A stretch of DNA of 63,874 nucleotides, the filler included, from Kipferlia bialata (lineage: Eukaryota), in assembly GCA_003568945.1 (NCBI GenBank). It is 4 parts of 4 records of this genome, joined end to end, with 100 filler letters (N's around TTAATTAATTAA, not from the genome) between each part and the next. Parts side by side here need not be neighbours in the genome. Positions count along the whole stretch, not along the records: positions 1 to 31,041 come from BDIP01000115.1; positions 31,142 to 49,713 come from BDIP01000116.1; positions 49,814 to 57,151 come from BDIP01000123.1; positions 57,252 to 63,874 come from BDIP01000156.1. One strand, given 5' to 3'. Below, one piece after another: positions 12,855 to 63,810 of this stretch. The position numbers were made by a program, and so were the translations under genes. Each line of letters starts with the position of its first letter. Position 1 is the stretch's first letter. The notes below the pieces were generated by a model. The model was not told the origin of the DNA, ran no database searches, and saw only the letters and a list, made by a program, of their open reading frames with translations.

Positions 12855-15484
12855 ATGGCCAAGCCTGCCAGGAGCAAGCACTCCAATGCGCCCCAGGGGG
12901 AGGCATCAGGGAATATCTGGGTGTGTGTTCGAGTGCGCCCTTGGGATGGGAAGGGGGCCAGCCGGAGTCTCTCTGTCAACGAGACCCAGCCCATTATATC
13001 TCTGCTATCTGAGGACAAGACCAAGGGCCACAAGAGGCAGAGCAAGTTCCAGTACAACCACGTGTTCGATGAGGGCAGCTCCAACAGGGATGTGTACGAG
13101 CAGGTTGGGGTGGCAGCCCTGACTCAGGTGGGTATATGGTTATTATTAGAATGGGTCTTGTGACCTCTAGAGAGGCCACTGCTGCATTTCCCTGCTCCTA
13201 TCGTATATGTATCTATTACACACTGCCAGTCCATCACCCAGTGGATGGAAGGTTAATGGAATCCTCTTACACTGGGACATTATTATAATATACTGATTCC
13301 AGGTGTTGGACGGGTACAACTCGACCATATTTGCCTATGGTCAGACCGGCAGTGGCAAGGTGAGGGAGGGTGTCCGTGTGTGTGAGTGCATGTCAATCTG
13401 TGTTGGTTCCATGCACATATGTGTGTCCCATGTCTCCCCCCAAGGTATACCCACCCCAGACCCACACCATGCTTGGCAGCGATGCCCAGCCAGGAGTGAT
13501 CCCCCTCCTAGGACAGGCCCTGTTCAAGGAGATCCAGGCCAAGCAGACCCCCAAGCAGAGCAGGGAAGGGGGGGGCACCACCAGAGACCAGGCAGAGTAT
13601 AGAGTGACGGTGTCATACCTGGGTATGTGCCACACTCACCCATGTGTACATATACACTCACATATATGTGTGGATATCTGTATGCATGTACCTTCCTATT
13701 CCACATTGAGACTGTCAGTACGCCTGCACATACTCATGTCTTCGTGTAGCTCACCAATGTCTCTAAGTACACCATATTCGATCGTCTAATATACTCTGTA
13801 TCCGTATTGTAGCATCCTCCAGCCATGGCTTGATCTCTAGAGGTGTATATGTACCTTACATATACCTCTGATGACACTGCCACCCATCCCAGAGGTGTAT
13901 CAGGAGCAGGTCCTGGATCTGCTGGAGCCGGGTAAGCAGCCCCTCCGGCTCAGGGAGCACCCGTCCTTGGGTGTGTTTGCAGACGGTCTAGCCGAGGTGG
14001 GTTGTTCTATCCATATCCATATCCATCTATATATATGTCCATCTGTATATGGCATCCCCCTCACTGTCAGGTCAGGGTGGCAACGGCAGACGACGTGGCC
14101 CAGCTTCTATTGCAGGGGTCTGCGGTGCGCAAGGTGGCCTCGACGGATATGAATGACAGGTACACTATGGATAGTACTAACTGGGACATGTATCTATGGG
14201 TACAGTATACGTATATATATATATGCAATTATGTATGACACATGTGTATACACTGCCCCCACCCCCCATGTACACTGACGCCAGGAGTAGCCGCAGCCAC
14301 GCTGTGTTCATGATGAGGGTGCAGCAGAGACACGTCTCTAGGACCAGGGGGGAGGGGGAGGGGGGGAGGGAGAAGGAGAGCGTGTCCACCATGTCTGCAC
14401 GACTGTACCTGGTAGACCTGGCTGGCAGTGAGAGTGTGCGAAAGACCAAGGCCACTGGGCAGACCCTGAAGCAGGGTGCATCCATCAACAGATCTCTGTT
14501 TGAGCTGGGCAATGTCATCAATGCCCTGTCCTCCGGCACAAAGAGACACGTCAACTACAGGTACGGTGTCAGTAGCTATAACTAGCTGTACTGATACTGA
14601 TACTGATACTGATACTGAGACACGTCAACTACAGGTCCAGGGGTGTGTGGATGTGTGTATGGTATATGCCCTTCCCCCCCTCCCGCTCACCCCCCAGAAA
14701 CAGTGCCCTCACCATGTTGTTGAGAGACAGTCTGGGGGGGAATGCACGCACAGCAGTGGTGGCCACTGTGAGTGCAGCCCCAGTGCATGCCCCAGAGACC
14801 AGGACCACGCTCATGTTTGCATCCAGGTATGGGGTGGTATGGTGTAGTGTGTGTGTCCACCTCGGTGGATGGGTGTGTGCAGTGTGTGTCTGTGTATGTG
14901 TATGTATGCCATCTGACCCCAGGGCCAACACCATCCAGGTCAAGGCGGTGCGCAACATGGACACCACAACCAGGTGGGGGGCAGTGTAGTGGGGGGGCAT
15001 TTGTAGGCTGTAATTGTATTGCTAGGGTGTCAGATGTATATGTTATGTTCAATGCCTTCTGCTCTGCTATTAGTGTGGTCACGTCGTAGTGTGTATATCG
15101 CTGTATGTGTAGATCTGCCTCACCCCAGGGTCATCTCTGAGCTGAGGGCCGAGGTCACCAGGCTGAAGCAGCTGCTGCAGGGGGCAGGGGAAGGGGGGGA
15201 GGGGGCCAGTGCGGATCAGGCCCAGGAGGTCGAGGTAGGCGGTGTCGTACTGACTGATACTGATACTGATACATACTGTGAAGTGCAGTGGTGTATATCT
15301 GGTTGCTGGCGAACAGAGGCTTGAATTGTATTCCTTTGTATATCCCTCTGCCATTTTTCCGTCGCACACAACACCTATACCCCCCTCCCCCCAGGCCGTG
15401 CTGGCTGCCCTGGACCTTGCCAAGAGGGCCTCCTGGGACTATGACACATCGTCAGACGAGACCCAGCGACAGGGGGCACTGCAG
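12855..15484 (+). CDS. N-terminal motor kinesin (kinesin-3-like), multi-exon, runs into gap
   Basis: IWVCVRVRP, FQYNHVFD, P-loop IFAYGQTGSGK/THTM, LRLREHPSLGVFADGL, switch I SSRSHAVF, switch II LVDLAGSE, SALTMLLRDSLGGNARTAVVATVS, and neck RVISELRAEVTRLKQLL. Confidence 0.95.
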
Positions 15485-15540
15485 GTAGGGGGGGTAGGGG
15501 GATATGGGGGGGGGGGGGGGAATTTTGGGGGGGGGACTGA

Positions 15541-16009
15541 NNNNNNNNNNNNNNNNNNNNNNNNNNNNNNNNNNNNNNNNNNNNNNNNNNNNNNNNNNNN
15601 NNNNNNNNNNNNNNNNNNNNNNNNNNNNNNNNNNNNNNNNNNNNNNNNNNNNNNNNNNNNNNNNNNNNNNNNNNNNNNNNNNNNNNNNNNNNNNNNNNNN
15701 NNNNNNNNNNNNNNNNNNNNNNNNNNNNNNNNNNNNNNNNNNNNNNNNNNNNNNNNNNNNNNNNNNNNNNNNNNNNNNNNNNNNNNNNNNNNNNNNNNNN
15801 NNNNNNNNNNNNNNNNNNNNNNNNNNNNNNNNNNNNNNNNNNNNNNNNNNNNNNNNNNNNNNNNNNNNNNNNNNNNNNNNNNNNNNNNNNNNNNNNNNNN
15901 NNNNNNNNNNNNNNNNNNNNNNNNNNNNNNNNNNNNNNNNNNNNNNNNNNNNNNNNNNNNNNNNNNNNNNNNNNNNNNNNNNNNNNNNNNNNNNNNNNNN
16001 NNNNNNNNN
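15541..16009. other. Assembly gap
   Basis: N run flanked by poly-G/poly-C. Confidence 1.
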
Positions 16010-16055
16010 TGGATTTTTATGTTTTGGGGGGGGCCCCCCCCCCCCCCTCACGCCA

Positions 16056-17078: not shown

Positions 17079-18827
17079 CTAGTTCTCCTTGTTCTGAACA
17101 ATGCTGAGCTGCCTCTCCCTCCACATCTCCCCAAACACACCGCCCTCCTGCTCGGCTAGCTCTCTGGGGACACCCTGCTCTACAGCCATACCGGCATCAA
17201 GCACAATGACCTGTGGTGAGGTATTTGAACACATCCATATTCATATACACAAGATGGGTAGGGTATTAAGAGAGAGACGTCCATACCGGCATCAAGCACA
17301 ATGACCTAGAGGGTAAGAGAGTGTGTAAGAGAGAGAGAAAGAGGGAGAGAGAGAGAGAGATACTGCTCAACAGCCATACCGGCATCAAGCACAATGACCT
17401 GTGGTGAGGTATTCACACACACAAACACACACATATATATATATACTAGGTAGAATAATGGATGAGACAGAGAGAGAGAGACAGCGATACAGTACGGCAT
17501 CAAGCACAATGACCTAGGGGGTAAGAGAGAGAGAGAGAGAGAAATACTGCTCAACAGCCATACCGGTATCACGCACAATGACCTGAATTGAGATGTACTA
17601 GGCATGGTATTAAAGGAGAGAGAGAGGGAGAGAGTGTGTATTCTGATACCTTGTCGATGATGACAAATAGTGGGTCTGTGTCAATATATATAACAATATG
17701 GGGATTGATACCTTGTCGAAGTCGATGATGGTCTCCAGCCTGTGAGCAATGGTGATGATGGTGCACCCCAGTTCACTGAACATGGTGTTGAGCACAGACT
17801 GGATCCTCTCATCGTTGTCCCTGGGGGTTAGGGGTATATACTATATACAGTCCATATGCATATAGAAAAATATATACAGGGTGACATGCAAAGACGTACT
17901 ATTAAGGCAGTCACATACCAGTCATGGACACAACCTAAATGTGTATTTCATAAATATCATCTGTATCTATACTATTAGTATCTATATACCTGTCCACGTT
18001 GGCCGTAGCCTCATCTAGGACAATGACCTTGGAGTCACGCAGCATGGCCCTGGGGGGTCAGAGAGAGAAAGATAGAGGTATATACATATTAGTGATAATA
18101 CACACTCTATACATACCTGGCCAGACACACCAGCTGCCTCTGCCCGGCACTTAAGTATATATATATAATAATATAATATATGTATATGTATATAATAGTG
18201 TTAATATATGTATATGTATATAATAGTGTTAATACATACCTGGCCAGGCACACCAGCTGCCTCTGCCCCGCACTGAGGTTGGACCCCCCAGAGGCAATCT
18301 CGATGTCAAGGACGGCAGAGAGAGGGTCAGAGGTCTGGAGGGTGAGGGTCTACAGCAACCACTAATATGTATAGGTGAACACATTACCTCTGGGACTGGT
18401 GCCACACCAGATGTCTCTCCCTCTCCCTCTCCCTCCATAGGCTCTCCAGGTCCAAGGGGTGTGGCTGTCTCAGCCACGTCTGCACCCTCTCTCTCTCCCT
18501 CTCCCTCTCTCACCATGCCCACCCTGTCCTGGGCCCAGTCCAGCAGGTTCACCTGGGGGTTAGTGAATTCATATGTATATACATATACAGAGGCCAGTCC
18601 AGCAGGTTCACCTGGGTTAGTGCATACGAATATCCATATATACAGAGGCCAGTCCAGCAGGTTGACCTGGGGGTAACATAGGGAACGGAATACAGACTGA
18701 TACTGGATATAGAGGGGTATGTTCATATACTCAATTATGCACATATATATGTCCTGGGCCCAGTCCAGCAGGTTCACCTGGGGGTTAATGTAAACAATAT
18801 AATATATATGTGTGCATATATATAGAT

Positions 18828-18859
<32 letters not shown>

Positions 18860-21800
18860 GGACTATCTGCACAAACATACCTGTCTCAGTGCCTGCACCA
18901 GCTGTGTGTCTGAGTACAGGTGGGATGGGTCCAGGTTGTTACGGAGGGTGTCGGTGAAGAGGGTGGGGTTCTGGGCCACAATGGTGATGGCCTGGGGGGT
19001 TAGAGAGTGATTATCACACTACTATCACAGAGAGAGAGACAAGAGAAAGACTCCCACACTCCTTAGGCGGTGCATTCACCCGGTAGTGTCTTACTATATG
19101 TAATAATATGCTAAGTACATACCCTCCTCAGGTGGTGCAGTCCCACCGATGTGATGTCCACCCCGTCCAGCTCAACTGTACCACTCTCAATGTCCAGGAG
19201 GCGGAACATGATGTTGGCCGTGGTGCTCTTGCCTAGGGGTAAGAGAGAAGAATACTAGGAGAAGTATAGAATATAATAGATAACACTGTATATTGAAACA
19301 GATCTTGGCTACAAGGTCAGAGGCTACTCTTCAGAATTTCAACTAGGACTCTCTGAAACACAGTACAAACCATCTCTCACCTGATCCTGTCCTGCCCACC
19401 AGTGCCACTCTCTGGCCAGCCTCGGCCTCGAAGGAGAGGTCCTGCAGTGAGGGATACAAACATACTACATACAAACACATTTACATGTGCGTGTGAGGTA
19501 TACATGCACTTGCATACCTGCAGCACAAGAGGCAGCTCGGGCCTGTATCTGGCAGAGACAGACCGGAAGGACACCTGGGTATGAGAACACCCTACACTAT
19601 ACATTGTATTGTGCTATTGTGTGAGGATCTCCGCGGAAGCCTCACCTTGCCTGTCTGTGGCCACAGAGTACACAGGTATCGTAGTGTGGTATACATATAT
19701 ATATATATATACACTAATAATATGAAACAGATGCTCTCTCACCTTGCCGGTCTGTGGCCACATTGGGTCGTCTGAGGGCAGGTTCCACTCTGGCTCCTGG
19801 TCTGGGTCGTTGGTGTACTCAAGGACCCTCTCGACTGAGGACAGCTCGGCCTGGGGTGAGGGAATGTATATATATACAATACATCTAATATATATCAATT
19901 ATCCATGTAGTATATGACAGCTCGGCCTGGGGGTGAGGGAATACTGTGTTCAGTCAAGATTCACTTGAATAGATATGTATACTATGAATAATACATAATA
20001 GACAGCTCGGCCTGGGTAAATACCAAATAGCAAGTCCATAGCATAGTCCATAGCATACATGACCCTACCTCAGCAATGCTGATGCGCCTGATGAGCCATC
20101 CCAGGGACTGGGAGGTAGAGAGACCTGGGGTGTGGAATATAGTAATGATATACCTATGGACAGCCCAGTACACATAATTATACCTGTGGATAGAGCCATG
20201 TTGGTGGGTGTGCCAAGTCTCTCTCCCTATCTCTCCCTCTCTCCATATTAATATATATAGGTATATACATATTCATATGTATATATATGTATACCTGTGG
20301 ACAGTGCCAATGCTGCCATGTTGGTGGGTATGCCAAGTCTCTCTCCCTCTCTCTCTCTCTCTCTCGATATATATACTCTACCTTGATATATATATATATA
20401 TATATATACGTATATACACATATATACCTGTAGATAGAGCCAGGGCTGCCATATTTGTAGGTATGCCAGGCACCACAGCCACCAGCAGGGCACTGGTACA
20501 TGCGATGACAGAGGCAAGGGTCTCAAGTCTCACAGAGATCCACCTGAGAGTGAGACATCAACAATCACTACTCATTTCCTATCTCTCTATCAGAGTTTCC
20601 CATAAAGATAGTCTATTCTTCTCTGGTACCTGTTGTTTGACACCGAGACGTAGTTCATCTGGCCGTTCTTGTCCAGTCCCTCATAGAACCTGGGGGTCAG
20701 AAACACATACTTCCCTTTTTGTACATAGTGGGTTTACATAGAGAGTGACCACATTCATTCTTGTTACTCCACTGTACCCCTACCTATCTGTGAGCACTGG
20801 GATGTAGTCACTTGCAACACATACTTATCACAATATTCTATACAATAGCGGGTATATATATAGTATGCGTTCAATCACTCTACAGTACCATACCTATCTG
20901 TGCGCACTGGGATGTAGTCGTACCCACTATATACATATAGTAGCGGGTATATATAGAGAGTTAATACCACCACTCTATTCACTGCACCCCTACCTATCTG
21001 TGAGCACTGGGATGTAGTCGAGAGCATTTGTTAGAACTACACATATCAGATAGTCTGTATAGAGAGTGACACTGCTACTCTACCTATCTGTGAGCACCGG
21101 GATGTAGTCGTATGCCCTCAGGGTGGACAGACCTCCCAGGGTCTCAGTGGCAATGGAGAGAACGGGGGAGCGGGCAATGCTCTGAGGGTTAGGTCTTAGA
21201 CAATATTGATTATATGAACGATACATATGTACAATATACAGAATGACAAGGTTGAGAGGAAGTCCTCACCTCCAGCCTGAACAGCTCTCTGTGGCTTGAT
21301 CTGAACACGTTCAGGTAGTGGACGTATACGATGAGGGAGGGTACCACCACTGCAATGTAGTAGGGCGACACAACGCAGATTGCGAAGAAGATGGCGCCGA
21401 CCATCAGAGAGAACCTGGGAGTGAGAACAGCTCATAACAATTATTATATAATAGTATTAATTATATAGCATGAATATATGAGTATATAGTACATAATTAT
21501 AATAATACAATAATAATAATACACACCTCACAACCATGGAGACTTCAGGAGGCAGCTTCTCATCAAGGGAGAGCATGTCAGCACTGAACCTGGGGATGAG
21601 GGCATAGGTAGAGGGAGTATAGATATATATTCGTTAGTAGTATATGCCTCCCCACCTGTTTAGCACCCTGCCATACCTGGCATATATATACCTACCATAT
21701 ATATATATATATATATAGTGTATATATACCTGTTCAGCACCCTGCCTAGTGGCCTTGTCTGGAACCATACATACTATATATATACATACATACACAAACA

Positions 21801-22152
21801 TATATACATATGTATGTACCTGTTAAGTACTCTGCCGAGTGGCCTTGTCTGGAACCATGTGAGGGGTGCCCTAAGGAGTGTAGAGAGGAGAGAGGTGTGG
21901 AAGGCAGCAGAGGCACGCTGGCAGGAGATGCGGAACACAGTCTCACGGCTGAACACCGTAACAACACCTGGGTAGGTGAGGAAGGGGCTGAGAGCACAAC
22001 AATACTCATAAGATGTAAAAACACTCACTCATGTATCGATACCTGCGAATGATATGGCTGCGTACATGGCCACCAGGTACCCAGAGGAGTGCTCGTCACT
22101 GCCATCACCCACCCAGTAGGAGAGCCAGAAGGTGGCGCCTGGCATGAGAGAG

Positions 22153-22188
<36 letters not shown>

Positions 22189-22842
22189 CTGTATACCCCA
22201 CCTGTGTTGAGGACCTGTGCCATGACAAAGAGCAGTGCCATGAGGACTAGACCGAAGGGGGTGCCAAGGGCCTGGGGGGTGAGAGCGACGCAGAAACAAG
22301 AGAGTATATTTACACATACACACATAGACACAATAAATATAGAAGGGAGTGCCAAGGGCCTGGGGGGTGAGAGAGGGCTACACTAATGAGATATTATACA
22401 TATACATGCATATTCACACTGTATACATACCCTTCCATACTGGGCCCACACGGCCCAGGGCACCTTGCCCCTCCTCCTCGACTCCTCCACCATAATCTTG
22501 CCATCAGTCTCTCTCTCTCCCTCTGCCTCTACATCAGGGGTATCCATGTCAACATCCTCCACTCCCACTGCACCATCTTCCTCCTCCTCCTCCTCCTGCA
22601 CTGCCTCGGGGGTCTGGGAGGCATGGTCGACAACCTACGCGATGAGTAGGTGTAAATAGACACATATACATGTGTACTTAGCCGCCACTCGGGTAGGGAC
22701 ACACACATAGAGTAAGCAGTTACTCAGGGACACTGTCACTGAGCCTATACCTTGCCGTCCTCGAGAGTGAGCACTGTGTCCGCAAAGGGTGTGACATAGC
22801 TGGAGTGCGTGGCCAGGATCACAAGGGCACCCGCCTCGTCCC
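17079..22842 (-). CDS. ABCC/MRP-type ABC transporter, 3' half (end of NBD1, TMD2, NBD2), many short exons
   Basis: KIMVEESRRRGKVPWAVWAQY, WFQTRPLGRVLNRFSAD, RSPVLSIATETLGGLSTLRAY, RWISVRLE, ELSSVERVLEY, ARYRPELPLVL, Walker A GRTGSGKST, signature NLSAGQRQLVCLAR, Walker B VIVLDEATANVD, H-loop TIAHRLETI. Stop at 17079-17081. Confidence 0.95.
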
Positions 22843-49200: not shown

Positions 49201-49653
49201 CCCAACCATACCTTTGGGTCGGACACCCCCACCCTATCCACTGTCTGGTACATGTCGGCTGTATCATCTGCCTCCCCTGCCAGAGACCGCTCGAACCTGA
49301 CAGCCAGCACCAGGGAGGTAGATGGCTCAGGTATCTCAAACACGGCCACCCTGGACAGAGAGGCCCCCTGGTCAGTCGCCTTGGGGTACATCATCTGGGT
49401 GATGTGGTTGTCATTCACGTTGAACTGGAAGGACTCCGACACTCTCTCCCCACTCTCAATGTCTAGCAGACACAGGTTGCCCCAGAAGGGCTCTATGAGG
49501 GCTCCTCTGGGGGGGACTAGCTTGTCCACTGCAACAACCACACGCAGACACCGCCTAGTGGGGAGGGGGGCGGGGTTGGTGGTGTGGTGTCTGGCGGCGA
49601 GGGAGGAGACGGGGTGGAGAGCATTCAGAAGGGGGACAGAACCGGTGGTGCGC
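43258..49653 (-). CDS. DOCK-family (DOCK-C/D, zizimin-type) Rho GEF with DHR-1/C2 and DHR-2; 5' end missing
   Basis: IEPFWGNLCLLDIESGERVSESFQFNVN; DHR-1 RNIVVSVELRD..YHHKTPEMGDEVRVRLPLQVTPRHHLLFTLYHVS; DHR-2 GTFYMVGMYG..FIYMEP..RRTVLTVKHPFPYLVSRQ..LQLVLQGSVMPQINSG. Exons 49653-49212, 49103-48763 and 48691-43258. Confidence 0.95.
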
Positions 49654-49813: not shown

Positions 49814-49898
49814 AGATCCAAAAAAGTCGCATGCGACGTCGCACCAAAATGGGGCTAGTCGCAAGATTCTTGGGGTGCGACGTCGCATGCCAACCCTA
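49814..49898. mobile_element. Candidate end of a hAT-like DNA transposon/MITE
   Basis: Perfect 17-bp inverted repeat (49829-49845 / 49874-49890, core palindrome TGCGACGTCGCA) ending in GCCAACCCTA (minus strand TAGGGTTGGC), at a contig start. Confidence 0.35.
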
Positions 49899-49999
49899 AT
49901 CAGCATCTAATCCTTCGTCTTCAGACTAGAGTGAGAATCCGTGAGTACAAGATAGTCGTTAGCCGGTAATCACCTCTTTGCGTTCGGACCATTGACATA

Positions 50000-51201
50000 A
50001 TGTCAGAGCTCCCCTACCCCTTTGTCACTATGGGTACTGTCCACCCGTATCCAGGCTATATAATGAGAATGGTTGCTACAACCCCCAGGCACGTATTCGT
50101 TCTGAGACAGGACGGGTCTGGGAACGCACTCTGCTCCGAGATCCACGTCAGTACAATGGGAGAGATCATTGAGCACCAGTTGGGTCCCGTTCCTCAGAGA
50201 CTCCCTTCTCTGTCACGCATGACTCTGAGGCAGAAACTGGTGGGCATCTCAGGAATGATATACACCGGTGGTTACGTCTATGTGTCTGCGCATGGCCATA
50301 CATATGTACGTTGCTGCGGTTGACACTGGAGAGTGGCTGGATCTAGACATTGGGCTCGACACCCAGTCACCCCCTCCATTTGTGTACGACGATCACGTGT
50401 GCCGTCTCGTCCGGGTCAAAGAGCCAGGCACATCTCACCCAGGGGTCCCCTGGGCCAGGGGAGCTCAGTAGAATGCAGAGCCTAGTCCATAATGGGACTG
50501 ACGCACTCTGGGAGGACTGGCCATCGACTGAGGGAAGCCACAATATTACTCTGGATGTGGGGCTGATGCACAACTCTAGAGAGGGTGCTGACTATCCTGA
50601 GCTTGTTCCCACTGTAAACGCCGACTGTGTGGTATCCCACGGCTTTGGGGCAACGGCCAATGTTCACTCTGATCTCACAGACCACACCTATCTCTGTGAC
50701 ATACATAGGACGTGTGGCTGGGCAACCCCAGTGAGAACGCCGCTTGAAACTGTCCTTGTTGGAGCTACTGACCGTCTGCTTCTCTTAAGGATTAGCGCTG
50801 GACGCCTCTATCTCTATGACACTGTGTCTCAGGAGTTCTGCAGAGACCAGCACTGGGATAGACAGGAGGCCTCCATGCTTACATTGGACTGTTTCAGCTT
50901 CCGTGGGCAGTCGGCATATCTCTCCTCGACAGAGCTCCTTGTTGTTGGTCACCAACTTGATACTGATCTTCTGATTGTCAGGTGTATGAACCCAGCTTTA
51001 CTCTACTCCGCCGCATGCGGTGGTGACTGGGATACTATTCCCCCACTGTCAGTGCTGTGTGATGGGGACAAGAGCTTTGACAGGGACGAGGATCTTGATG
51101 CTGATGCAAGATACGGCAGGGACGGGGGTGGGGCAGGATTCTGGGGAGAAGAAGAGAACAGGGGAGAGTATTATGATGCAGACGATGGATACTTCTGGTG
51201 A
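50000..51201 (+). pseudogene. Frame-disrupted intronless gene, possibly kelch/beta-propeller-like
   Basis: Overlapping ORFs 50000-50323, 50268-50471 and 50350-51201. Blade-like segments MYVAAVDTGEW and LYLYDTVSQEF, and an acidic tail. Confidence 0.35.
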
Positions 51202-51589
51202 AAGATGAGACTTAGATATCGAGGGAATAGAGTACGGAGTAGATATATCAACTGGGCAAAAACTTGCTAAATTCCGGCAAAATGGTAATGAAAAGTAGTT
51301 ACATAGATGAGACGTTGTGTATCGGGTACTTACAGATAGGAACGTGTATGTAATGGTAATGTCGGGGTTTCGTAGAAGCCGTTTCGTCTTAACAACGACA
51401 CTCAACTGTCATGCGAAGGAAATACCAAGTACAGACGCCGAGCTCTATTGACACCACACCCATTCAGACTAAAGATAACACAAAACACCAGAAGAGAATA
51501 CAAACACAAATGGGGGTGGTATAGTGGCAAGGGTCTCTCTCTCTCTCTCTCTTTCTCTATCTCTCTAGTATCTCTCTTTCTCTATCCCT

Positions 51590-53776
51590 CTAGTACACAT
51601 CAGTCCCCACCACCTCCTCCAGTGCACGTCTGGTCTGCACAAGCATGTCGCTGATGCTGGTGACCTGGGGTTAGATCGGATACACTATAGGTACACACAC
51701 AACTATAGATGTATACATGCTGGGTAAGCATGTCGCTGATGCTGGTGACCTGGGGTGAGTACAGAGAGAATATAGAATGTATAGAACATTATTGTCGTCC
51801 TTCCATATCTGTCACTAACATATATATATATATAGACTAAACTATACATATACACTACATACCTGGTCACTCGAGTACTTGATGTGGTCGTCCTTCCACC
51901 AGTACAACAAGCACATACAAATATATATATATATTAGGAGAGAGACTAATGCCTATATATATACCTGGTCACTCAAGTACTTGATGTGGTCGTCCTTCCA
52001 TGTAGTCCCACTCAGCACACTGTCACTCTGCCTCTCCCGCACACGCTCCATCTCCTAGGGGTTAGACACATACATACATTTATGCATATATATATACACA
52101 CATATATATATGGGTGTCTCTCCCGCACACGCTCCATCTCCTAGGGGTTAGATATTTAGACAAACAAAAATCTATGGTTTATAATATTGATAGATGCGTG
52201 TGTGTGTGTAATTTATAGCGTATGAATGTGTACCTTGAATGACCCTGTCTCGAGCTGTCTCTCCAGCTGCTCTACCTTGCTCTCCCTGTCTGCACCTTCC
52301 TCCCGCATGGCACCTAAGGTAAGGGGTATATACAGTATGATAGATATAGTGTATAATATCATGCATAATATCATATATATATATGTGTGTGTGTGTGTAA
52401 TCTCCACGTCTGCACCTTCGTCCCGGACGGCACCTCAGAGGTGAGGGGTATATGCTTTGACACACACACATATATATATACTATAGAAAGACCAGATTAA
52501 CGTCACTTGGGGGTTCGGCGTACAGATACACTCACACAGTGTGATATACATACTATATGCACTATATATAAACACCATACCTATCTCGCGTTGCAGGGCA
52601 CCGATGCGTCTGAGTAGCACGGCAGTCTCACTCTTGGTGTCACCTGGGGGTGAATGAGTGTGGGCGGACCAAAACTATTGTGTCTATATGGATGTATACA
52701 CACACCCAGGTCCGACAGGCACTGTGCCTGCCACCAATGTACATACAGAGTATAATGTACACCACTATTCAGGTATATACCTAGGTCCGACATGCACTGT
52801 GCCAGTCTCATCTGCTGTAGGTGGGTGTCAGCCTGGTCCTCACTGGCCACGGTCCTGGGGGGTAAGATACTCGGGATAATGTATGTGTGGAACACTATAT
52901 AATGTGCTTGTACTCAATTCAATTGACCACAACTCTATCGTGAGTATATGGAGTCGCAATGCATACCTGTACTTGGCTGCCGTTCTCTTGGACTGCCTCA
53001 GTCTCTCGGTGTCCTCCTCCAGCACAAGCTCAAACTGAGGGGTCAGTAACAGTGGGAACACTAATATATATGTATATATACATATATATGTATATTTAAA
53101 ACTACATATGCCATTGATGTCCTCTTATAGCACTGTTTATATACACTATATACCTCCTCCCTCTCTGCCTGTCTCTCCTCCACAGCATGTGTCAGCTCTA
53201 TCACTGTGGTGTGTAAGGCACTGGCCATGACCTCATCCCTGGCCCTGGTGGCTAATATGCTCTGGATGTTAGGTTATATGTGTACATAGATGTATATATA
53301 TGTACCTCTGGGGATTAGGGTTTGTATACACATATGTATATAAACATATGACCTTATCTCTGTCCCATGTACCCCATATAATTATATGCACACATATGCA
53401 TCTTACTATATTATTATACTATGCATATTTTTTTACCACTCAATAAGTACAAGTATATCTTCCTCTACCTCGCACCACCACCTCCTCTCTGTCTCGTACT
53501 AAGCATACAAATGTATATATAAATAGAAAGAGAGGGAGAGACTATATAACCATGTCTCACCTCGCACCACTGCCTGCTCTCTGCCTCATGTACCCCATAT
53601 ATATCACCACATATGTACTATAGTATCAACCCTTACCTCGCACCACTGCCTGCTCTCTGTTTCATGCACCCCCACCCTGGCCAGGAACTGTTGGAAGACA
53701 GATATGATGAGAGAGGCCTCCTTCTGGGTGGGGGTCCGCTTCCTAGTGACGTCCTGAAGACCTAGGGGTGAGGGGG

Positions 53777-53827
<51 letters not shown>

Positions 53828-56800
53828 GCCTCCTTTTGGGTAGGAGGCCTCTGTCTAGTGACATCCTGAAGACCTGGGGTAAGGACGGGTACGCATGTAT
53901 ACAATAAACTGCGTAGAAAGATCAGTATTATACCTCTGATGAGCTGCACCAAGTCTCTCTTCCTGAGAGGTGTAAAGGGGGGCAGGAGGGAGAGAGCATC
54001 GTCGGAGACAGTCTCATCAGGACTGGGGGAGGGTTCATATGTGTACTTCCTCTCTCCCTCTCTCTCCCCCTCCCCCTCTCCACTCTCTAGTGCAGTGTCA
54101 GTCTCTGAGACCTCACCCCCCTCAACCTGCATCACACTCACTACCCTACCCGCAGTGCCTGTACTGGCAGTGGAGGCACCCCCCTCTCCTTCCCCTCCCT
54201 GGCTGAGAAGGGAGGGTAGGAACACAGAGACAGAGGGTATACGGGTCATGGCACCATCCTCCTCTCTCTCCCTCTCTGATCCTGTAGAGCGAGAGTGAGA
54301 GGGAGAGAGGGAGACAGACCGCGAAACGGTGCGGGTGCGAGACTCGGAGCGTCTCTCCGCTGGGGACACCGTCCTCTCTCTCTCTCCGTCTCTCTCTCTC
54401 TCCTCACTCTCCCTACCCCTCTCCTCCTGTATAGTAGTCTGACCCCACAGGGAGGGAGTGCCAGGGAGAGACAGACCAGCCACATAGCCGCTGCCCCAAT
54501 CACCCTCCCCATCCCTCTCTCTCTCTCCCCCCATGCCTAGGGTATCAATGAAGGCACGCATCTGCTCCTGGGAGTCACTAACCCCCTTGCTACCCTTGCT
54601 GGAGTGGCCGAAGGGTAGAGGGGGGAGGGCAGAGGTAGATCCTGCCCCAGAGGCAGAAGGGGAGGGAGATGATTCATTAACCCTCTCCACACTATCTCTC
54701 TCCCTCTCATTCTCTCTCTCCCCCTCCGTCTCCACACTAGCAGAGGCCCCTGAGACATCAGCAGATGCATCCACTACCCCCCTGTCCCCACTGTCATTGT
54801 TAGAGAGGGCAGGACTCTCTGAAGGTCCACTCTCTCCCTCCCTCTCTGTCTCTGTCTCTCCCTCTCCCCCTGTCTCCCTCGCCTCACTGCCGACAGCAGA
54901 TGCAGAGTGAGAAGACTCCATGGCATAGCGAGATTCAGAGAGTGTTTGCTCCCGATACTGTGACTCAGTCTCCTCAGTCTCCTCATAGACAGGTGAGGCA
55001 TCCTCTCTCTCCCCCTCTCTCTCTCCCTCTCCCTCTTCCCCTCCGAACCCAAAGATACCCCCAGCCCCATTCTGCACCACACTGCTAGTACCCCACACTG
55101 AGTCAGGCACACCCTCACTGGAGGCATCTCTACTCAGGGTGACCTCTCTCTCTCTGCTCACAGTCTCAGTGCGTGCACTACTCTCTCCCTCTACACTCCC
55201 TACACTCTCTGTACTCCTTAGGGTCTCTCTAGACCCTCTAGTCTCTCTAGTCTCTCTAGTGTCTGCCCCCGGTGGTCTACTTGTCACAGAGGCCATACTA
55301 CTGTGCATATCTAGCAGAGCCCTCTCCATGGCACTCTCTCTCTCCCTCTCTCTCTCCCTATCTCCAGTATTGTCAGATACTGTACCCTCCTGACCATCTA
55401 GGCCCTCCCCGAAGCTGGGCTCAGTACCAGCCCTGAGGCAGGCCTGGGTGTGAGTACAGGTAGAGAGAGAGCCAGATGTAGAGAGATACACCTTGATACC
55501 TGTGGCGTGTATGCCATGTAGGGCATTGATGGCAGGACAGCAGGGGATGGGGCATATACAGGGGCACTACTAGACGGTATAGATGGTATGACCACACTCC
55601 CCGGTGGCACAGGTGCAGCCCCAGACACTGTGGGTGTATCCCTCTTCTCGTCCAGTATCCTCTTACCCAGTGAGGCCAGGAACTGACTCAGAGTGTCATT
55701 GCTAGTGGCACTCTCTCCCTCCTTCTCCTTGCCCCCCTCCCTCTCCCTCTCCCTCTCCCTCTGGTCGAATATCATCAGGGGTGAGTGTGTGGTCATGATG
55801 GAGGGACGGGCAGGGGGTCTGGTGGGGGAAGACACCTCAGCAGCAGGGGTAGGGGCAGCAGCAGGGGGGACTTCTCTCTCCACCTCTCTCTCTCTGTGTA
55901 TCTCTCTCTCCTGGTGAGTGGGAGGCATAGCTCTCGACCCCTGCCGCCTCCCCCTCTCCCTCCCTCTCTCTCTCCCCCCCTCTCTCTGTGTGGGCTGGGG
56001 CTGCGCTGGGGGGTGGGGAGAGTACATCGCCTGGGGGGCATGCACTGGTTCGGCCGCTCTCTCTCTCTCCCTCTCCATGTCTCCCTCTCCCCCTGTCTGG
56101 GTGGGTACCTGTGTCGTCAGATACATAGACACTGCCGCAATGTATCAGAATACTACATAATCACAGAACCCTACCTGCCCTGTCACGAAGAATGACATGT
56201 CCTCTCTGACCCACTATTCCTTAACCCATTACATGTATATGTGTATGTGGCCACACACTAGATATACATATAAATATAAATACATGAGTATACACACCTG
56301 CCCCGTCATGAAGAATGACATATCAGGTGCCGCAGAGTCCAGGTGCCTCTCTCTCTCCACCTCAGCGTCTCTCTCTCTCTCTCTCTTGGTCTCCAATGGG
56401 GGTTGAAACTCCACACTCATGCTGGGTCCAAACATACCCCCTCCCTCCTGCTCCCCTACCCCTGCCAGGCCCATGCGCCTCTCCACCACTAGTAGCTCTC
56501 TCTCCCACTGCTGTCTCTCCCTGGGATCAGTGTCATACATACATACACATAAATTGCACATACACTACTCTTTGTACATGCATCAGTGGTCTATGCATGC
56601 TATATCATATTAGACAAAACTGTCATTTTTCCTATACACATTACATACCTGTCCCCCCACAAACACTGGAAATATACAATTATAACATATATATATGTAC
56701 ATCCACACTCTATACCTGTCCCCCCTGCGTCTCTGCAGGGTAGTGACATTAATACATTCATTGTATATATACCCTAGTATTGATACTTGTATCAGTAGAG

Positions 56801-57073
56801 GTATATATATACACATTACAAATACCTGTCCCCCCTCCGTCTCTGCAGGGCTGCTGCGATATCCCTCTGTTGTCTCTCTGTGATGCTGGAGTTGTATGCC
56901 AGGGACAGAGACCCCAGGCCACACTCGGTGCTCATAGCCACAGCCATGGCGGCCTGGGAGTGGGTCCACAAACAATATTTCTACATATAGAATTTAGATT
57001 ATACAATGATTACTCTGTGTACATATACCTTTGATGTCCTGAACCCCATGCCGTTCCTGTCCAGCGAGAGAGC
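51590..57073 (-). CDS. Large uncharacterised protein: E/R/S-rich low complexity with C-terminal coiled coil, multi-exon, 5' end missing
   Basis: Long exons (~53934-55441, ~55500-56107) and many short exons ending ..WKDDHIKYLSDQ/VTSISDMLVQTRRALEEVVGTDVY* (stop 51590-51592). Confidence 0.65.
51641..56850 (-). repeat. Splice-junction echo repeats in the 51.6-57 kb gene
   Basis: Copies at ~51727, 51860, 52118, 52408, 52705, 53467/53558, 53822, 56172 and 56646/56713. Confidence 0.88.
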
Positions 57074-57207: not shown

Positions 57208-57251
57208 NNNNNNNNNNNNNNNNNNNNNNNNNNNNNNNNNNNNNNNNNNNN

Positions 57252-58227
57252 TGCCTTCACCCTGATCGCCAAGGTATTTCTCTCTCTCTCTCCCCCCCCC
57301 CTCTCACACATGATTCTTTATCTCTTATACTCTTTCACTGTGCCCCTGTTTTCATGGGCCGTTCAACTATGTACCACCTGCAATGTATACAGACGGTATA
57401 CATATCATTATATATATGTTGTGGTATGTATATTGTGGTATGTCTTCTCATACCAGGTCGAGGCTGAGCACGAGCGCCGCTACAAGGCCTTCCTGTCCAA
57501 CATCGAGGACGGGTCAGTCTTTGAGAAGAAGGAGGTATGGGAACATGTATGGATACCAGTCTGCTCTATCAATGTACTGAAGTATATATTTCACATATAA
57601 CATATCTAATCCTCTAGGTGATATACTGGCAGTGCCGCAACTCTGACCACATTCTCTCTCTCTCTCTCTCTCCCTCCACTCTCTCTATCTCTCTTTCTCC
57701 CCCCCCCCCTCTCTCTATCTCTCTCTCTCATCTAACCCCCAGGAGGTGTACTGGCAGTGCCGCAACTGTGGCCACGTCCACCATGGCAAGAAGGCCCCAG
57801 GTATAGTATAGTGTGTATGTGTAGTTACACATATGTAGTAATGTAGATATAGGGTAGAGAGTGTATATATATATAGTACCATGTCCTTTGTCTTCATAGC
57901 CACGTCCACTTTGGCACAAAGGCACCAGGTACTCTCTCTCTCTCTCTCCCTCTCTCTGTCTCTCTCTCTGTCTCGTTTTCCCCTCTTACCCCAGGAAAAT
58001 GCCCCACATGTGACCACCCCCAGGTACCCACCCTCTCTCTCTCATTCTCTCTGACGCTCATTCCATTTGTCTGTCTCCCTCTGTCTCTCTCTTCCTCTCC
58101 TAAACCACCGCTCAATTTCAACCCTCCCCACTCCATCACACTCCCTCACCTTAAGTTGAAGGTGTGTGTTATATGATATATATCCAACCCCCAGGCCTAC
58201 TTTGAGGTCCGTGCCGCCAACTACTAA
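57252..58227 (+). CDS. rbr: Rubrerythrin, 3' part (di-iron ExxH + rubredoxin-like CxxC..CxxC)
   Basis: Exons 57252-57273, 57457-57534, 57743-57800, 57995-58023 and 58195-58227 give AFTLIAKVEAEHERRYKAFLSNIEDGSVFEKKEEVYWQCRNCGHVHHGKKAPGKCPTCDHPQAYFEVRAANY*. Confidence 0.95.
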
Positions 58228-58453
58228 GCAGGTCACTATAGACTGTAGTACACACCGCTAGGGACTAGTAATGTTCACTACTTGTGTGCTATGTGCTAAC
58301 TGTTGTATGTTGTGCTTGGTGAGTATCTATACACCCGCGGTTCCTGAGTGTGCCTTTGAGAGGTATATCGGGAGCCAGATACCAATACCAATAGATATTC
58401 AACAAGGGCTGTCTGTCGAATAGTCAGGGTTCAATCCTCCTCTGGTGTTAATA

Positions 58454-61400
58454 TCACTCGTCGCCTTCGGAGTCCGAGTGCAGCTCAGTTGGAGAAGACT
58501 AATCATTCTATTCATTGCCTCCAATGGATAGTTATAATACTAGTTCTATTTCTTTGTGGACTCTATTAATTCAGTCCTCACCCTCTGAGTCTGAGTCCAG
58601 CTCCGCGGGGTGTAATACTAGAAATGTATCTATTTAGTATAGAAACCAAGTCAGGCGGGAACTTCCCGCCTGGCGGGTAGTCTTTGTACTCAGTCCTCGC
58701 CCTCTGAGTCCGAGTCCAGCTCAGTAGGGTGTGTCGCAAGGACAGGTCTCTTCACGGCACATGCTGTGACAGGGGAGGTGGGGTTGGGGGCCTTGCCCAT
58801 GTACACGGCAACGGTCTCACGCATCATGCTGATACATTAGAAAAAAACTCATTGTAGGGTATATTATATAGCCGCTATATATATGTGTGTGTGAATGGAT
58901 TTCCGAGTGTACTCGAATGGTCAGAGCATCATGCTGATACATGAGAGAGCAAAAGAGAACAACATTGTAAGGATATATGTGTGTGTGAATATGGATTTCT
59001 GAGTACCGAGACTTTGTGTTTCTGTAGTACATCAATATCCCAGTATAGACTTCCTAGGTTGTGATATGGGATAATAATAATATGATAATAATACAGAGAC
59101 TTATCAGTACCTTCTGACCCTATCTGTAGGATTCATGGACGAGCTCGCTCCCTTGAGATACACCAGTGTGTACTTGAGAAACTGCTCCAAGGTTAGACTC
59201 CCTCCCTTAGACGCCTTCTTGTTCATGATAGACGCCCTGCGGATCTGGAGTGAGGGAAGATTCTTACAGTATATAGTATTCCACAAAGTATGCGTGACAA
59301 TAGTATGCATATATATGTAGACATACCCTGTGTGACACCGACTGCATCAACAGGCAGCACAGCTCAATGAGGGAGTATATATGCAGTGTATACACTATAT
59401 AGTATAGAGTAAGCAGTGGATATACCCTGTGTGACACCGACTGCATCAGCAGACAGCACAGCTCAATGGGGGTGTAACCAAAGTGGACATATATACTATA
59501 TCTCCTATACTATGTATATACTGTATATACTCATATACATACCTTGTTGGATACCGACTGCATTAACAGGCAGCACAGCTCAATGGGGGTGTAGTCAAAG
59601 GGGACACTGGGGTCACTGCCCAGGTCAAGCACCTTCTGAAGATCAGATTCCAGTAGTAGTTCATAAACTAAAGAACAACTATATAGTATAATAATATATA
59701 CATACTCATAATGATGCTTACGAGTGTGACTGCCCAGATCAAACACCTTCTGACATCAGTATCTACACGAGTAACTGATGTATCTACACGAGTAACTGAT
59801 GTATACTGATTGACAGTATTAGTAATTATTAAATTACCTTCATTCCGAAGCGCTGTGTCAGTTGGGTGATGTACTTGATGGCGTTCTCTGGGTTATTGGC
59901 GACCACCCCCGGCTTGCACGGGTTGAACGTGGCTAGGAAGGGGTCGTTGGCGGGAACCAGTCTTTGTGCAGCTGATTGAAGAATGGGCATCATCAGAAGG
60001 GGGTTGATGTACTTGCAGGTAAGGACTGTGATCGGTATCCATCCCTAGGGTCAGTATATGAGGCACACTATGATCCTTCTGGACTCTTTAGAAGTTCCAA
60101 ATTAGAACTATAGTGTCAATGAAAGGGTGTCACATCACTTAGAGAATGCTAGTTGAGTACATATATACATAATTTACCTTGTTGAAGCTGGCTCCTATCA
60201 GCCTAATCCCTCCCTTGTGCATATGTGCCACAGACCCCAGAACCTCCAGGCTCTCATTGATTAGCTCTAGTCGCTCTGAGCTCCTCTTGGCTTCTGGGAC
60301 GTCTGGCACGTCTGGAGCGTCTGGGACGTTTGGGACGTCTGTACGGTACCTCACACTGTGTGAGGCGACACTGATGTTGTGGAATGTCTTGAGTAGTCTG
60401 TCCTGGAGTCCAGACATGATACGCCTCCATGACAGGAAGTGCAAGAGGGCAGTGTTGGAGGATATGTCCTCGCTGTCACCCTTCTCACTCCCTGCTAGAA
60501 CGGCCTTGTCGGTGGCAATGTCTGCCCTGAGGGAGACAATCTGTATTGTAAGAGGTGTATGTGTACATGACAATATTTAGAGAGTCATATACATGACAGT
60601 GGCAATGTCTGCCTTTAGGGATGCTACCTGGAGAGTAAGAAGTATATGATATATATATGACTATGTGTACATGACATAATGTATAGAGAGAGACTTTTAT
60701 ATGGCAATGCCTGGCTTGCGGGTGGCTACCTGCTGAGTGAGACAGGAGTAAACTAAGTTATGATAGTACATCACTCTTATGAGGGGTTATGACATCAGGG
60801 ACACTATCTGTACTAGTACCTGTGATGGAAGGGAGGGATACAATGCAAATACATAACGTATGCGGTCTCAAGTACTATATAGTACTTCATAGTACACTGG
60901 TACCCTCCGCACCCCTATCCACCTATGTATACATATATACATGTGTATATACATACATATACATATACATAGATACATACATACTATTTACGCATTATAG
61001 ATATACTCGATATAATGCCTTGGCAGGATCTGCATCGTTGCCATCTATATATGTATGTACATATATATATGTTTGTGTGTGTGTGCGTGTTTTTATGTAT
61101 ATACAGAATGTAACTACAGATACTATATACACTATATATCATAGACTACCTTAGCAGGATCTGCATCTGTGTCCGCCCCTGCCCTCCTGGCCAACCGCTC
61201 CTGGGCATTCTCAAGCTTGAGAGTGACTATCTTGCGATGCAGCTGTATTAGCATGGGGTACGGAACATGCATATATGGCGTTGGTATATGCCAGTAACCG
61301 CATGTCATCAATTAGTCAATCTATCAATACATGAATTCATCACACCTGCAGTGTCTTTCTGAACCCAGCCTTGAACGGAGGAAACATTCCACTCTGAGCC

Positions 61401-63743
61401 TCGTACTCCTCAGGGTATACGCACAGGAAGGTGGGGTCAGACTCTAGGGCCTAGGGTCAGTGTATACTCTGAAGGAATTCTAAAAAGAAATACATACTAT
61501 GTACACAGCATATTCTATCTATATTGTACTATACATATATGTATTAATATAATCTCACACATATGCACAGGAAGGTGGGGTCGGTCTCAAGGGCCTAGGG
61601 GTGAGGATATACCTAACGCATTGGTGGGAAGTACTTATATTATTTATTTTTACATATATATATATTATTATTATTATATATATATAGGGACGAGGGGTCA
61701 CTGTCTAAGGCCTAGGGGTGATAATACTGGTAGTCTTGATGTAAATGTACTACATACTGTAAGAACACATACACACATACACACATACACACATATATAT
61801 ATATATATATACAGGAATACGGGTTATCTCTCTAGGGTCTATAGATGAGACAACATACTGAACCAGTGACTATATACAATATTAGTATACTTAATACGTA
61901 GGGACCAATCACCGTTCCTCAATCAGCTGAATGACAGCCAGGGCAGACTGGTTGTGCAGAGCTTAGGCCTAGTAGATATATACATATATACACTTAGAAT
62001 ACAAACTCCTCTAAACACAGTATATATGTATTGTACCTCTATCAGCTGTATGACAGCCAGGGCAGACTGGTCATCCACACACCCCTTGGCTACCAGTGAG
62101 TGGAAGGTGGCGTCGAACACAGCGTGCTTCTGGAGGTAAGGTATATATATATACTGATGAGTGTACATCGAATACATAGAAATATATATACTACACTTCT
62201 ATATACTAAGGAAGTGGAAGGTGGCATCGAAGACAGTGTGCTTCTGAAGGCAAGGTACAAATATACTAGTGAGTGTATACATCAACGAATACATAGAAAT
62301 ACATATACTGTACTACTCTATACTGGGTGGCAATTAGTATTCACACTAGTACAGAGTAACAATATATTAGGGTCGCAATAATATGTGCACGTACGTGTAG
62401 GATATATGCACCAGGCTCAAATGTTCCGGCTGCAGGCTGCTTGAATAGCTCTCCAAACATCTCTCTGACACTCACTGCCACCTCTGCCACATTGGACAGG
62501 GTGAGGGTGTCTGGGGTTAAGAGTATCATTCATTATATGCATATATGCATATAGTGCTGGAGATGCCACCTCTGCTACATTGGACAGACTGAGGGTGTCT
62601 GGGGTTAGAAGGATCATTCATTATCACTATATATATATGTGTGTACGTGTATGTATATATCCATACAAATATATAGTTGACGGCCACCTCTGCTACATTG
62701 GACAGGGTGAGGGTGTCTGGGGTTAATAGCATCATTATATATGTAATATATATATATGTACATTATCACTGCATATAGAAACAACATAAATAGTGCTGCC
62801 ACCTCTGCCACATTGGACAGGGTGAGGGTGTCTGGGGTAAGATACATATAGTGATGCACTACATATACATTATGCAAATATAGTGTTATAGACAACCTCA
62901 AACACATTCGAGTGGGTCAGGGGGTCAGGTGTTAATAGATGTAGCAATCTAGAGAGGTATAACAATATAGTGTCGGACACAACATCACACGTGTTGCCCA
63001 AGTGTATCTATATTAGCGAAATTTATATACCAGATAGACAGATAGTAGCAGTATACCGGATAATACAGTCATTTCCGAATTCTCGAATGTAAGAGTGGAT
63101 AGTGTCCGCGAGTATATAGATAGGCTGTCACCGAGTACACTTGGAGACAAGGATATACAAAGAGACATGTACCTATTGGCATGGGAGGAAGAGGATGGTT
63201 CGATTGTATCCACTTGGCATCTCTGGTTGTGGACACTAGACGCCTGGTGCGTCAGTAACTATATAAACGTTATATACTTTATACAATCAACATACATAGA
63301 CGCCTGGTGCGTCAGTAACTATTTCAACGTTATATACTTTACACAATCATTACACCTAAACGCCTGGTGCGTCAGTAACAATCTAAACGTTATATACTCT
63401 ATAATAATCAACATAATAATCAACATAAACAAACGCCTGTTGCGTCAGTAATTGAGGCTATACATACGAGGCCTACTCTATGATGTAATCTAAAAACAAC
63501 TTCGATAGAATAGATAGACTACTAGAGACTAAGAGAGACGTAGGAAATTGAGAATCCATATATCTCGGTATTTGGCGCATACATGAGTGACAGAATATGA
63601 TATGACAAGAACATTTGGTCTTCATCCACAAGATTAATCATATTGTACTATAATTTGCATTGACAACAAGCCCATACGTACCTGGCATATTCGATGTATT
63701 GAGTCTCTACACGCCACCCCTCGGCACTGGAGAGACTGATAGT

Positions 63744-63778
<35 letters not shown>

Positions 63779-63810
63779 GTGTCACGCCACCTCGGCACTG
63801 GAGAGACTGG
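58454..63810 (-). repeat. Stop-codon and splice-junction echo repeats in the terminal gene
   Basis: Copies at 58454, 58571, 58926, 59324/59422, 59725, 60599, 61017, 61565/61693, 61922, 62212, 62565/62683/62798, 63298/63358/63431 and 63709/63783. Confidence 0.88.
58690..63243 (-). CDS. Uncharacterised multi-exon protein (probably extends beyond the window end)
   Basis: About 10 exons with canonical sites (e.g. KHAVFDATFHSLVAKG.., ALESDPTFLCVYPEE.., IVSLRADIATDK.., KVLDLGSDPSVPFDYTPIELCCLLMQSVSNK), ending HPTELDSDSEGED* at 58690. Confidence 0.65.

Follow-up and report, generated by a model that had tools for sequence, protein, structure and literature searches.

Repetition of exon sequence beside its source is known from several systems. 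Mutually exclusive exons that arise by tandem duplication occur as two exon copies, with silent differences, in one gene. Junction-spanning minisatellites, exemplified by the 37-base-pair variable-number tandem repeat in intron 7 of human F7 and found also in IFI6 (6-16), CBS, lamin B2, and PDGF, repeat the end of an exon and its donor in the next intron; the repeats are silent, and the most upstream donor is used (PMC1557585). In the potato gene for RNA-dependent RNA polymerase (RdRp), a tandem duplication across an intron-exon boundary has produced a new intron and a small exon (PMC4974935), a case in the class of internal gene duplications (Gao and Lynch 2009, as cited in PMC4974935). In the fungus Schizophyllum commune, with a parental distance of 14%, crossovers fall in conserved exons (PMC4209137). 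Here we analyze a 63,874-nucleotide (nt) stretch of the genome of the free-living fornicate Kipferlia bialata, a species for which 124,912 introns and two k-mer peaks have been reported (PMC5874029), and describe in it 54 direct copies of the end of the adjacent exon, which we term exon-end echoes. The stretch, four scaffolds joined by N spacers, is referred to below as the window, and all counts were made within it.

The echoes resemble F7-type repeats in that the first unit spans the boundary and the splice site is repeated (54 copies) and in that, at three introns covered by one transcript contig, the repeats are silent and the outer site is used. However, F7-type arrays consist of 5-25 near-identical monomers, in single genes and described at donors only (PMC1557585), whereas the echoes occupy 33 of 86 introns, affect acceptors as often as donors, and carry a codon signal in their exon parts; similarity of whole units, intron part included, is not the rule for the echoes (6 of 54) and reaches the F7-type pattern solely in units at 63237-63451. 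Acceptor echoes share the anatomy of the potato RdRp duplication, that is, an intron 3' end and an exon start in tandem, but the potato event is a single, intron-creating case (PMC4974935), whereas the echoes are removed with their intron (three seen, with echo-bearing stretches of 282, 298, and 202 nt removed as single introns) and have cut edges that lack splice sites. In form, each echo is what a neutral internal tandem duplication leaves behind: a direct, local, head-to-tail copy with one new joint. In Schizophyllum commune, exchange between genotypes more than 10% apart is likewise confined to conserved exons, but the published abstract gives positions of crossovers, not retained double junctions (PMC4209137). 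Mutually exclusive exon copies are whole and carry both an acceptor and a donor; the echoes carry one splice site and 7-69% of the parent exon. No description of this echo density or of the codon signal was present in the full-text literature searched (subscription journals and several supplements lay outside its reach); the main text of the K. bialata genome paper, to which the search of that paper extended, makes no mention of duplication or intron repeats (PMC5874029), and the searched part of PMC10078293 contains nothing on the echo pattern. We conclude that single-gene junction-spanning duplications are known, and that the density of the echoes and the coding past of the copies appear, within the literature searched, to be new.

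Anatomy and distribution of exon-end echoes

Hand-built models for the window comprise 12 genes, 86 introns, and 172 junctions, with open frames in 11 of the 12 genes; the model of the gene nearest the end of the window (the terminal gene) is identical, letter for letter, to K. bialata database protein P0001, and the eIF2B-alpha model (170 amino acids) is the exact C-terminal part of K. bialata database protein P0005. A junction-anchored scan with a threshold of 20, for which the false-hit rate was 0.0007 (4170 non-cognate tests), identified the 54 echoes in 33 of 86 introns and at 38 of 172 junctions, with seven below-threshold candidates excluded from the count. All echoes are anchored at the exon-intron junction. 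The frame of one gene, at 38.9-40.2 kilobases (kb), could not be closed; without its single echo, the codon counts comprise 53 of the 54 echoes, distributed over the four scaffolds, in order, as 21, 7, 11, and 14. The echoes are 10-64 nt long (median 28.5), occur as one to four copies per junction, so that up to five versions of a single junction are present, and are separated by spacers of 33-145 nt (median 72.5, against a median of 90 for echo-free introns). The splice dinucleotide is retained in 49 of 54 (GT in 23 of 27 donor echoes, AG in 26 of 27 acceptor echoes). Cut points show no preference for a reading frame (21, 17, and 15; n=53), nor do echoes favor lengths divisible by three (22, 13, and 18; n=53). 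Inverted matches amounted to five, namely four simple repeats and one 12-nt palindrome. The initial annotation of the window had reported repeated exon ends in at least seven genes on all four scaffolds (kinesin, ABCC, methyltransferase, eIF2B-alpha, the 51-57 kb gene, rubrerythrin, and the terminal gene), as one to four direct copies truncated on the exon-internal side rather than as whole exons; the scan recovered echoes in all seven, with that anatomy.

Echoes cluster by gene (permutation p=0.002). The junction scan found them in 0 of 8 introns of a gene that we take to be SNF2-like and in 0 of 6 introns of a presumed threonine dehydratase-like gene, and self-comparison of the unmodelled genes at 6-12.6, 23.4-26.3, and 35-37.4 kb shows no junction repeats. 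The stop-codon end of the terminal gene is also echoed, with two copies downstream of the gene, which indicates that the pattern tracks the border between coding and non-coding sequence and not splicing alone. We conclude that the pattern of junction-spanning duplication is real, dense, and statistically firm.

Wrong-side echoes were found in 0 of 172 tests: exon ends recur only downstream and exon starts only upstream, as a single out-of-register join predicts. The same result bears on the proposal that a tandem duplication of entire genes or exons gave two copies, both of them functional for a while, which deletions later fused out of register. Such a history would yield purifying selection on both copies and spacers of nearly intron length, as observed, but loss of either end should leave wrong-side echoes, the ABCC gene would need at least ten cycles at similar distances, and no paralogue was found for the two genes tested (for eIF2B-alpha, among the matches listed). 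We regard fusion of tandem paralogues as highly improbable.

Codon signal and intron sides of the echoes

The 53 echoes differ from their exons at 132 of 1543 sites, and 78 of the differences are synonymous and 54 non-synonymous, with 78 at third positions. The pooled ratio of non-synonymous to synonymous differences per site (pN/pS) is 0.21 (junction bootstrap 0.14-0.30), and it is 0.18 with one echo per junction, 0.23 with unique changes, and 0.19 with trimmed ends. Read in the two wrong frames, 30 and 21 of the 132 differences are synonymous, versus 78 in the true frame. Third-position transversions affect 24 of 254 four-fold sites versus 3 of 209 two-fold sites (p=2e-4); transversions thus shun two-fold sites, which indicates that the constraint acts on protein. 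By gene, pN/pS is 0.08 for ABCC and 0.20-0.25 for three other genes. The silent skew had been proposed to hold across genes; it holds for ABCC, eIF2B-alpha, the 51-57 kb gene, and the terminal gene, on which it rests, since there is no silent excess in the other three named genes, rubrerythrin having 3 synonymous versus 7 non-synonymous differences and kinesin and methyltransferase having none.

The initial annotation had taken a pooled dN/dS (the ratio of non-synonymous to synonymous divergence) of about 1.0 as the mark of an unconstrained echo, and the window lies far from that value. However, a benchmark of 1 is too lenient, because the live exon is constrained anyway; a fair null pairs a neutral echo with a live exon that is constrained and frozen in its amino acids. 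Passed through the same detector, this null gives a pN/pS of about 0.43, and for each of three age models 0 of 150 runs came down to the observed 0.212, whereas simulated purifying selection on both copies reached the observed ratio in 88-91% of runs. Direct sampling from the neutral-echo null, with all changes, rejects it at P<=0.004. The observed 0.21 is therefore not what neutral decay of a dead tandem copy predicts (about 0.43 or more), and it is what is expected if both copies were under purifying selection since their split. Comparisons of echo with echo give a pS of 0.19 and a pN of 0.067 (pairs not independent). Codons changed twice number 17 versus 12.4 expected (p=0.07, not significant). 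Echo residues found also among 65 eIF2B-alpha relatives were set aside, most of them lying in split codons or beside a likely insertion. We conclude that protein-level constraint in the differences between echo and exon is supported and survives the stricter null.

In multi-copy arrays, changes private to one echo comprise 14 synonymous versus 16 non-synonymous (ratio 0.37; P 0.02-0.065 versus neutrality), and changes that sibling echoes share against the live exon comprise 8 synonymous and 2 conservative (unique changes). GT or AG has been lost in 5 of 54 echoes, and loss shows no link to more amino-acid change (4 echoes, p=1.0). One rubrerythrin echo has an altered cysteine in a CXXC motif; this cysteine is metal-binding and is kept in aligned solved rubrerythrins. 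The borderline skew of private changes, the lost splice dinucleotides, and the altered cysteine together fit selection before capture and decay after it. They lend weak support to the initial suggestion that echoes serve as a purified reservoir of exon ends.

The intron side behaves differently from the exon side. Within 6-10 nt of the junction, identity declines from about 0.9, its level in the exon part, to about 0.35; unrelated introns give 0.27. The spacers, initially described as unrelated, deserve that description in 48 of 54 cases, where the intron side aligns no better than unrelated introns do; in the other 6 it clearly aligns with the live intron side. The value of pN sets a ceiling of about 0.05 on neutral decay, so a co-copied flank would be expected to remain alignable, short of a mutation rate more than ten times higher in spacers. 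Simple repeats and microsatellites make up about 18% of echo introns, versus 12% of other introns (p=0.005). Synonymous counts are not overdispersed (index 0.81), which fits one fixed distance near 0.25; exponential spreads of distance reach that index in 0-3 of 150 runs and gamma(4) in 7 of 150, although the power of the test is modest, at about 7 synonymous sites per echo.

These data bear on a second alternative, in which a tandem duplication on the same chromosome was followed by overwriting of the live exon through exon-limited gene conversion from diverged alleles, while slippage scrambled the spacers, such that the echo is the old resident copy. The predominantly silent changes shared by siblings (8 synonymous, 2 conservative) speak for it, in that the skew may sit largely on the live side, as do the merely borderline skew of private changes, the existence of plain young tandem units (63237-63451), and the greater microsatellite content of echo introns. 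But the decay ceiling predicts alignable flanks, seen in just 6 of 54; pairs of echoes are skewed as well; and a pool of diverged alleles would still be required. We consider this alternative unlikely.

Splicing of the echoes and their origin

Contigs from two runs (X1 and X2) of one sample, of which X2 is presumed to be RNA, none of the runs listed in the search being recorded as such, were compared with the window over 57252-60880 (3.6 of 64 kb). An X2 contig of 1717 nt, with 0 other letters, skips four stretches bounded by CT..AC (282, 298, 202, and 133 nt); the first of them contains a weak echo, the second a pair of donor echoes, and the third a single acceptor echo. The outer splice sites are thus used at those three introns. 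The contig stops 18 nt beyond the working stop of the terminal gene, before the stop-codon echoes. Echo copies are absent from this one transcript contig, as read with the proviso that contigs drop rare forms. Cut edges carry a splice-like site in 2 of 27 and 1 of 27 cases, versus 6% at random, and there is no enrichment of AG-GT. The micro-exon idea was rejected, and rescue by recursive splicing was discarded too: exons starting with GT are echoed in 6 of 18 cases versus 17 of 68 others, and exons ending in AG account for 19 of 20 versus 59 of 66, with neither enriched.

The proposal that echoes are in current use, because unusual splicing brings them into translation or because they often replace the exon through pop-out, can draw on the retention of GT or AG in 49 of 54, on echo sites that score at least as high as live sites in 9 of 27 on each side, and on the lean of private changes toward synonymous. 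It has to contend with a spliced contig that skips the echoes, with stop-codon echoes that lie beyond the end of that contig, and with the altered CXXC cysteine; moreover, exchange frequent enough to purge echoes would be expected to erase silent differences. The lack of a splice site at cut edges, lengths that ignore frame, and the absence of AG-GT enrichment make present use unlikely, and the splicing of echoes themselves, one of three mechanisms initially put forward, is not supported by these results. Present function of the echoes is not supported, and we see only a slim chance that this proposal is correct.

A further alternative is that the echoes are an assembly artefact, in which haplotypes or strains with different introns were placed in tandem. 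This would explain the silent skew and the unrelated flanks together, and the species has two reported k-mer peaks (PMC5874029). The read support against it consists of two short contigs in one gene, from a run on which the assembly itself may be based. An X1 contig joins the live rubrerythrin exon, the spacer, and 27 echo letters at depth 360 with 0 other letters, 4 letters short of the 31-letter bridging rule applied. In addition, neither decayed echoes, with lost GT or AG or an altered cysteine, nor cut points that lack splice sites can belong to live alleles, and a junction present in up to five versions has more of them than two haplotypes would supply. The share of words present in X1 (0.95) was not used as evidence, since joint-spanning words are only 4.5% of the stretch concerned, and many bins of 57252-60880 have no X1 cover, to which we attach no weight. 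We judge an artefact of assembly quite improbable.

We favor, as moderately probable, the reading that the echoes are scars of two diverged, working gene versions that were joined out of register, with the echo having decayed since. It builds on the anatomy, the codon signal, the step in identity at the junction, and the removal by splicing at three introns, each of which is supported directly; we infer the donor version and the repair route, with one type of event as the simplest account. The versions would be alleles or homeologues that differ by about 0.25 synonymous changes per site, joined with an overlap of 60-170 nt, probably during break repair. According to this proposal, at least two versions of a gene would coexist until their introns became unalignable, with the exons kept by purifying selection; repair would then pair the versions through a conserved exon, in the manner of the crossovers in the hypervariable fungus Schizophyllum commune (PMC4209137), not an intron, and the other end would be closed by end joining at a short overlap. 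Overlaps that copied or broke a whole exon would be purged, whereas overlaps across a single junction would survive, with the outer splice sites still used; the captured echo would decay neutrally, and some arrays would expand by ordinary unequal exchange. An overlap across a donor would give a donor echo, across an acceptor an acceptor echo, and across a stop a stop echo, and overlaps lying wholly inside introns would go unseen. Later unequal exchange would account for sibling echoes with common changes and for the young 60-nt units at 63237-63451. Metamonads are described as lacking Ku-type end joining, and K. bialata has entries for PolQ, Rad52, XPF, and ERCC1 (PMC8516963, Supplementary Data 2); this gene content makes the route possible and does not by itself demonstrate it. 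Copying of the junction from a diverged allele or homeologue, as the initial annotation had suggested among its mechanisms, thus fits best, although the donor version itself was not found in protein or metagenome searches.

Several observations weigh against joining of diverged versions. The search for a second version of the terminal gene gave one match among 313 longer candidates and none among 1106 shorter ones, no relative above 37% identity is present among 1.84 billion representatives, and eIF2B-alpha has one K. bialata entry among the best 120 of 241 matches. Several junctions carry at least three flank types, more than two haplotypes alone supply. The codon signal weakens to a pN/pS of 0.26 when ABCC is omitted, and under the most demanding conditions, with each change counted once and a transition bias of 10, the null is rejected only at P=0.02. 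Thirteen of 53 echoes are identical to the exon, some of them with unrelated flanks; the six intron sides that clearly align, and a slight overall excess of intron-side similarity over controls (Wilcoxon p=0.035), likewise do not fit. Finally, the last acceptor wins despite equally scoring echo acceptors in 9 of 27 cases. With P0001 as query, a metagenome scan yielded 80 pattern matches, among which there were 0 relatives; with P0005 it yielded 4 loci of 45-68% identity. These loci neither match the window at the DNA level nor contain direct repeats and, being distant, serve as no control.

If diverged versions were joined in this manner, a broader history may be considered, which we advance tentatively and with less than even confidence: that the genome was stitched from at least two lineages, separated by about 0.25 synonymous changes per site, and has routinely kept both versions of junctions without Ku, that introns grow by stacking intron alleles, and that thousands of echoes may form a fossil record of a vanished parental genome.

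Individual genes and implications

On the first scaffold, the kinesin gene (12855-15484, plus strand; 10 exons modelled; Pfam Kinesin) has a donor echo of 18 nt with 0 differences (14617-14634, plus strand). The gene at 17080-22841 (minus strand; 21 exons modelled), which on its motifs we take to encode an ABCC-type transporter, has 19 echoes in 10 of 20 introns, with 24 synonymous and 6 non-synonymous differences. Four acceptor echoes of its last exon (17281-17305, 17363-17398, 17495-17513, and 17547-17582) form a nested array with three acceptor types. The further minus-strand echoes of this gene are a donor echo at 18117-18151; three acceptor echoes at 18594-18611, 18649-18666, and 18750-18777; an echo at 19058-19077 in which just 1 of 4 changes is silent; echoes at 19646-19665, 19916-19926, 20001-20011, and 20184-20198; a 41-nt echo at 20295-20335 with 8 of 8 differences synonymous; donor echoes at 20784-20809, 20894-20922, and 20994-21020 with one silent change in common; a donor echo at 21730-21768 with 4 of 4 differences synonymous; and an acceptor echo at 22342-22359. 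The methyltransferase-like gene (27721-28869) has an acceptor echo of 17 nt with 0 differences (28541-28557, plus strand).

On the second scaffold, the 3' part of the eIF2B-alpha gene (31993-34062, minus strand) has 7 echoes in 4 of 6 introns (32513-32544, 32624-32654, 32754-32797, 33035-33073, 33351-33373, 33565-33595, and 33858-33885, all minus strand), and an additional partial copy of its last exon lies directly past the stop, near 31940-31958 (minus strand). The gene whose frame is not closed has a 13-nt donor echo (39393-39405, minus strand). Elsewhere on this scaffold, some 5 kb of GC-rich sequence at 42900-48000 (minus strand) lacks evident introns, in a window otherwise dense in introns; it continues a gene that starts near 49650 and presumably resembles a DOCK-family exchange factor. 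Apparently intron-free, coding-like stretches occupy 40490-41250 and 41290-42130, between intron-rich genes.

At the start of the third scaffold (49814-51200), about 1.4 kb of sequence does not resemble the genes on its flanks; it includes a short inverted repeat near 49830-49890 and is possibly a mobile-element remnant. The 51-57 kb gene (51589-57073, minus strand), which matches no Pfam family (503-amino-acid exon scanned), has 11 echoes in 8 of 12 introns, all on the minus strand: 51726-51749, 51863-51898, 52115-52140, 52401-52433, 52706-52728, 53469-53495, 53561-53596, 53821-53873, 56175-56201, 56649-56658, and 56716-56740. Runs of (GA)n inside exons (53935-56108, minus strand, and others) read as Glu-Arg repeats, introns are filled with the same runs, and the echo at 53821-53873 ends within such a run.

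On the fourth scaffold, the 3' part of the rubrerythrin gene (57457-58227, plus strand) has an acceptor echo at 57618-57650, the one with the altered CXXC cysteine, and a donor echo at 57899-57928 (both plus strand). A stretch of 31-35 nt after its last donor (58070-58104) is matched by many short contigs of X1, whose depths add up to about 10,000, and may be a dispersed intronic repeat. The rubrerythrin X2 contig (58187-58390) has a depth of 1305, versus 14.7 for the terminal gene, although contigs cannot rank expression.

The terminal gene (58690-63735, minus strand) consists of P0001 plus upstream exons at 63735-63682 and 63243-63173, and has 12 counted echoes in 6 of 9 introns, all on the minus strand: 59327-59377, 59426-59489, 59726-59749, 60599-60627, 61019-61036, 61561-61594, 61918-61952, 62213-62243, 62564-62598, 62680-62716, 62796-62831, and 62895-62925. 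The two echoes of its last codons and stop (58571-58613 and 58454-58492, minus strand) lie beyond the end of the spliced contig, and the first encodes the identical last 10 residues of the gene. Three young acceptor echoes in 60-nt units (63303, 63363, and 63436, within 63237-63451, minus strand) have short exon parts and similar intron sides and are ordinary tandem amplification of one junction; these repeats, at 63.2-63.4 kb, are acceptor echoes and not, as once considered, a promoter motif. An acceptor echo of exon 63735-63682 lies at 63790-63810 (minus strand). The two extra exons (63173-63735, minus strand) lie in frame upstream of the P0001 start, so database protein P0001 is probably cut short. 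A 1288-amino-acid relative, P0003, with a weak MIF4G match below cut-off, aligns with the terminal gene in the C-terminal third only.

Splice sites of the window have features of their own. GTACGT donors occur at 62395, 27018, and 63682; two of them follow A or C, not G, and they are needed for open frames. At acceptors across the window, branch-point-like letters are fused to the 3' splice site (for example, CTAACCCCCAG and CTCACCCCAG), with the pyrimidine tract between them nearly absent. The lineage has been described as having a reduced spliceosome, with 87 of 174 proteins (PMC6679479).

Dead DNA is expected to be indifferent to the genetic code, whereas the echoes respect the code in many unrelated genes. 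They supply many natural cases of competing 3' splice sites, and they can mislead gene prediction and allele counts in the K. bialata genome. If introns have indeed stacked alleles, one assembly would record the coding sequence of lost gene versions at more than one-fifth of splice junctions (38 of 172), a fornicate could be tested for hybrid origin or cryptic sex, and intron turnover would become measurable against silent sites. If, further, the echoes derive from a vanished parent, they would represent a new way for introns to grow and, in a protist, a new signature of hybridization or sex in the past.

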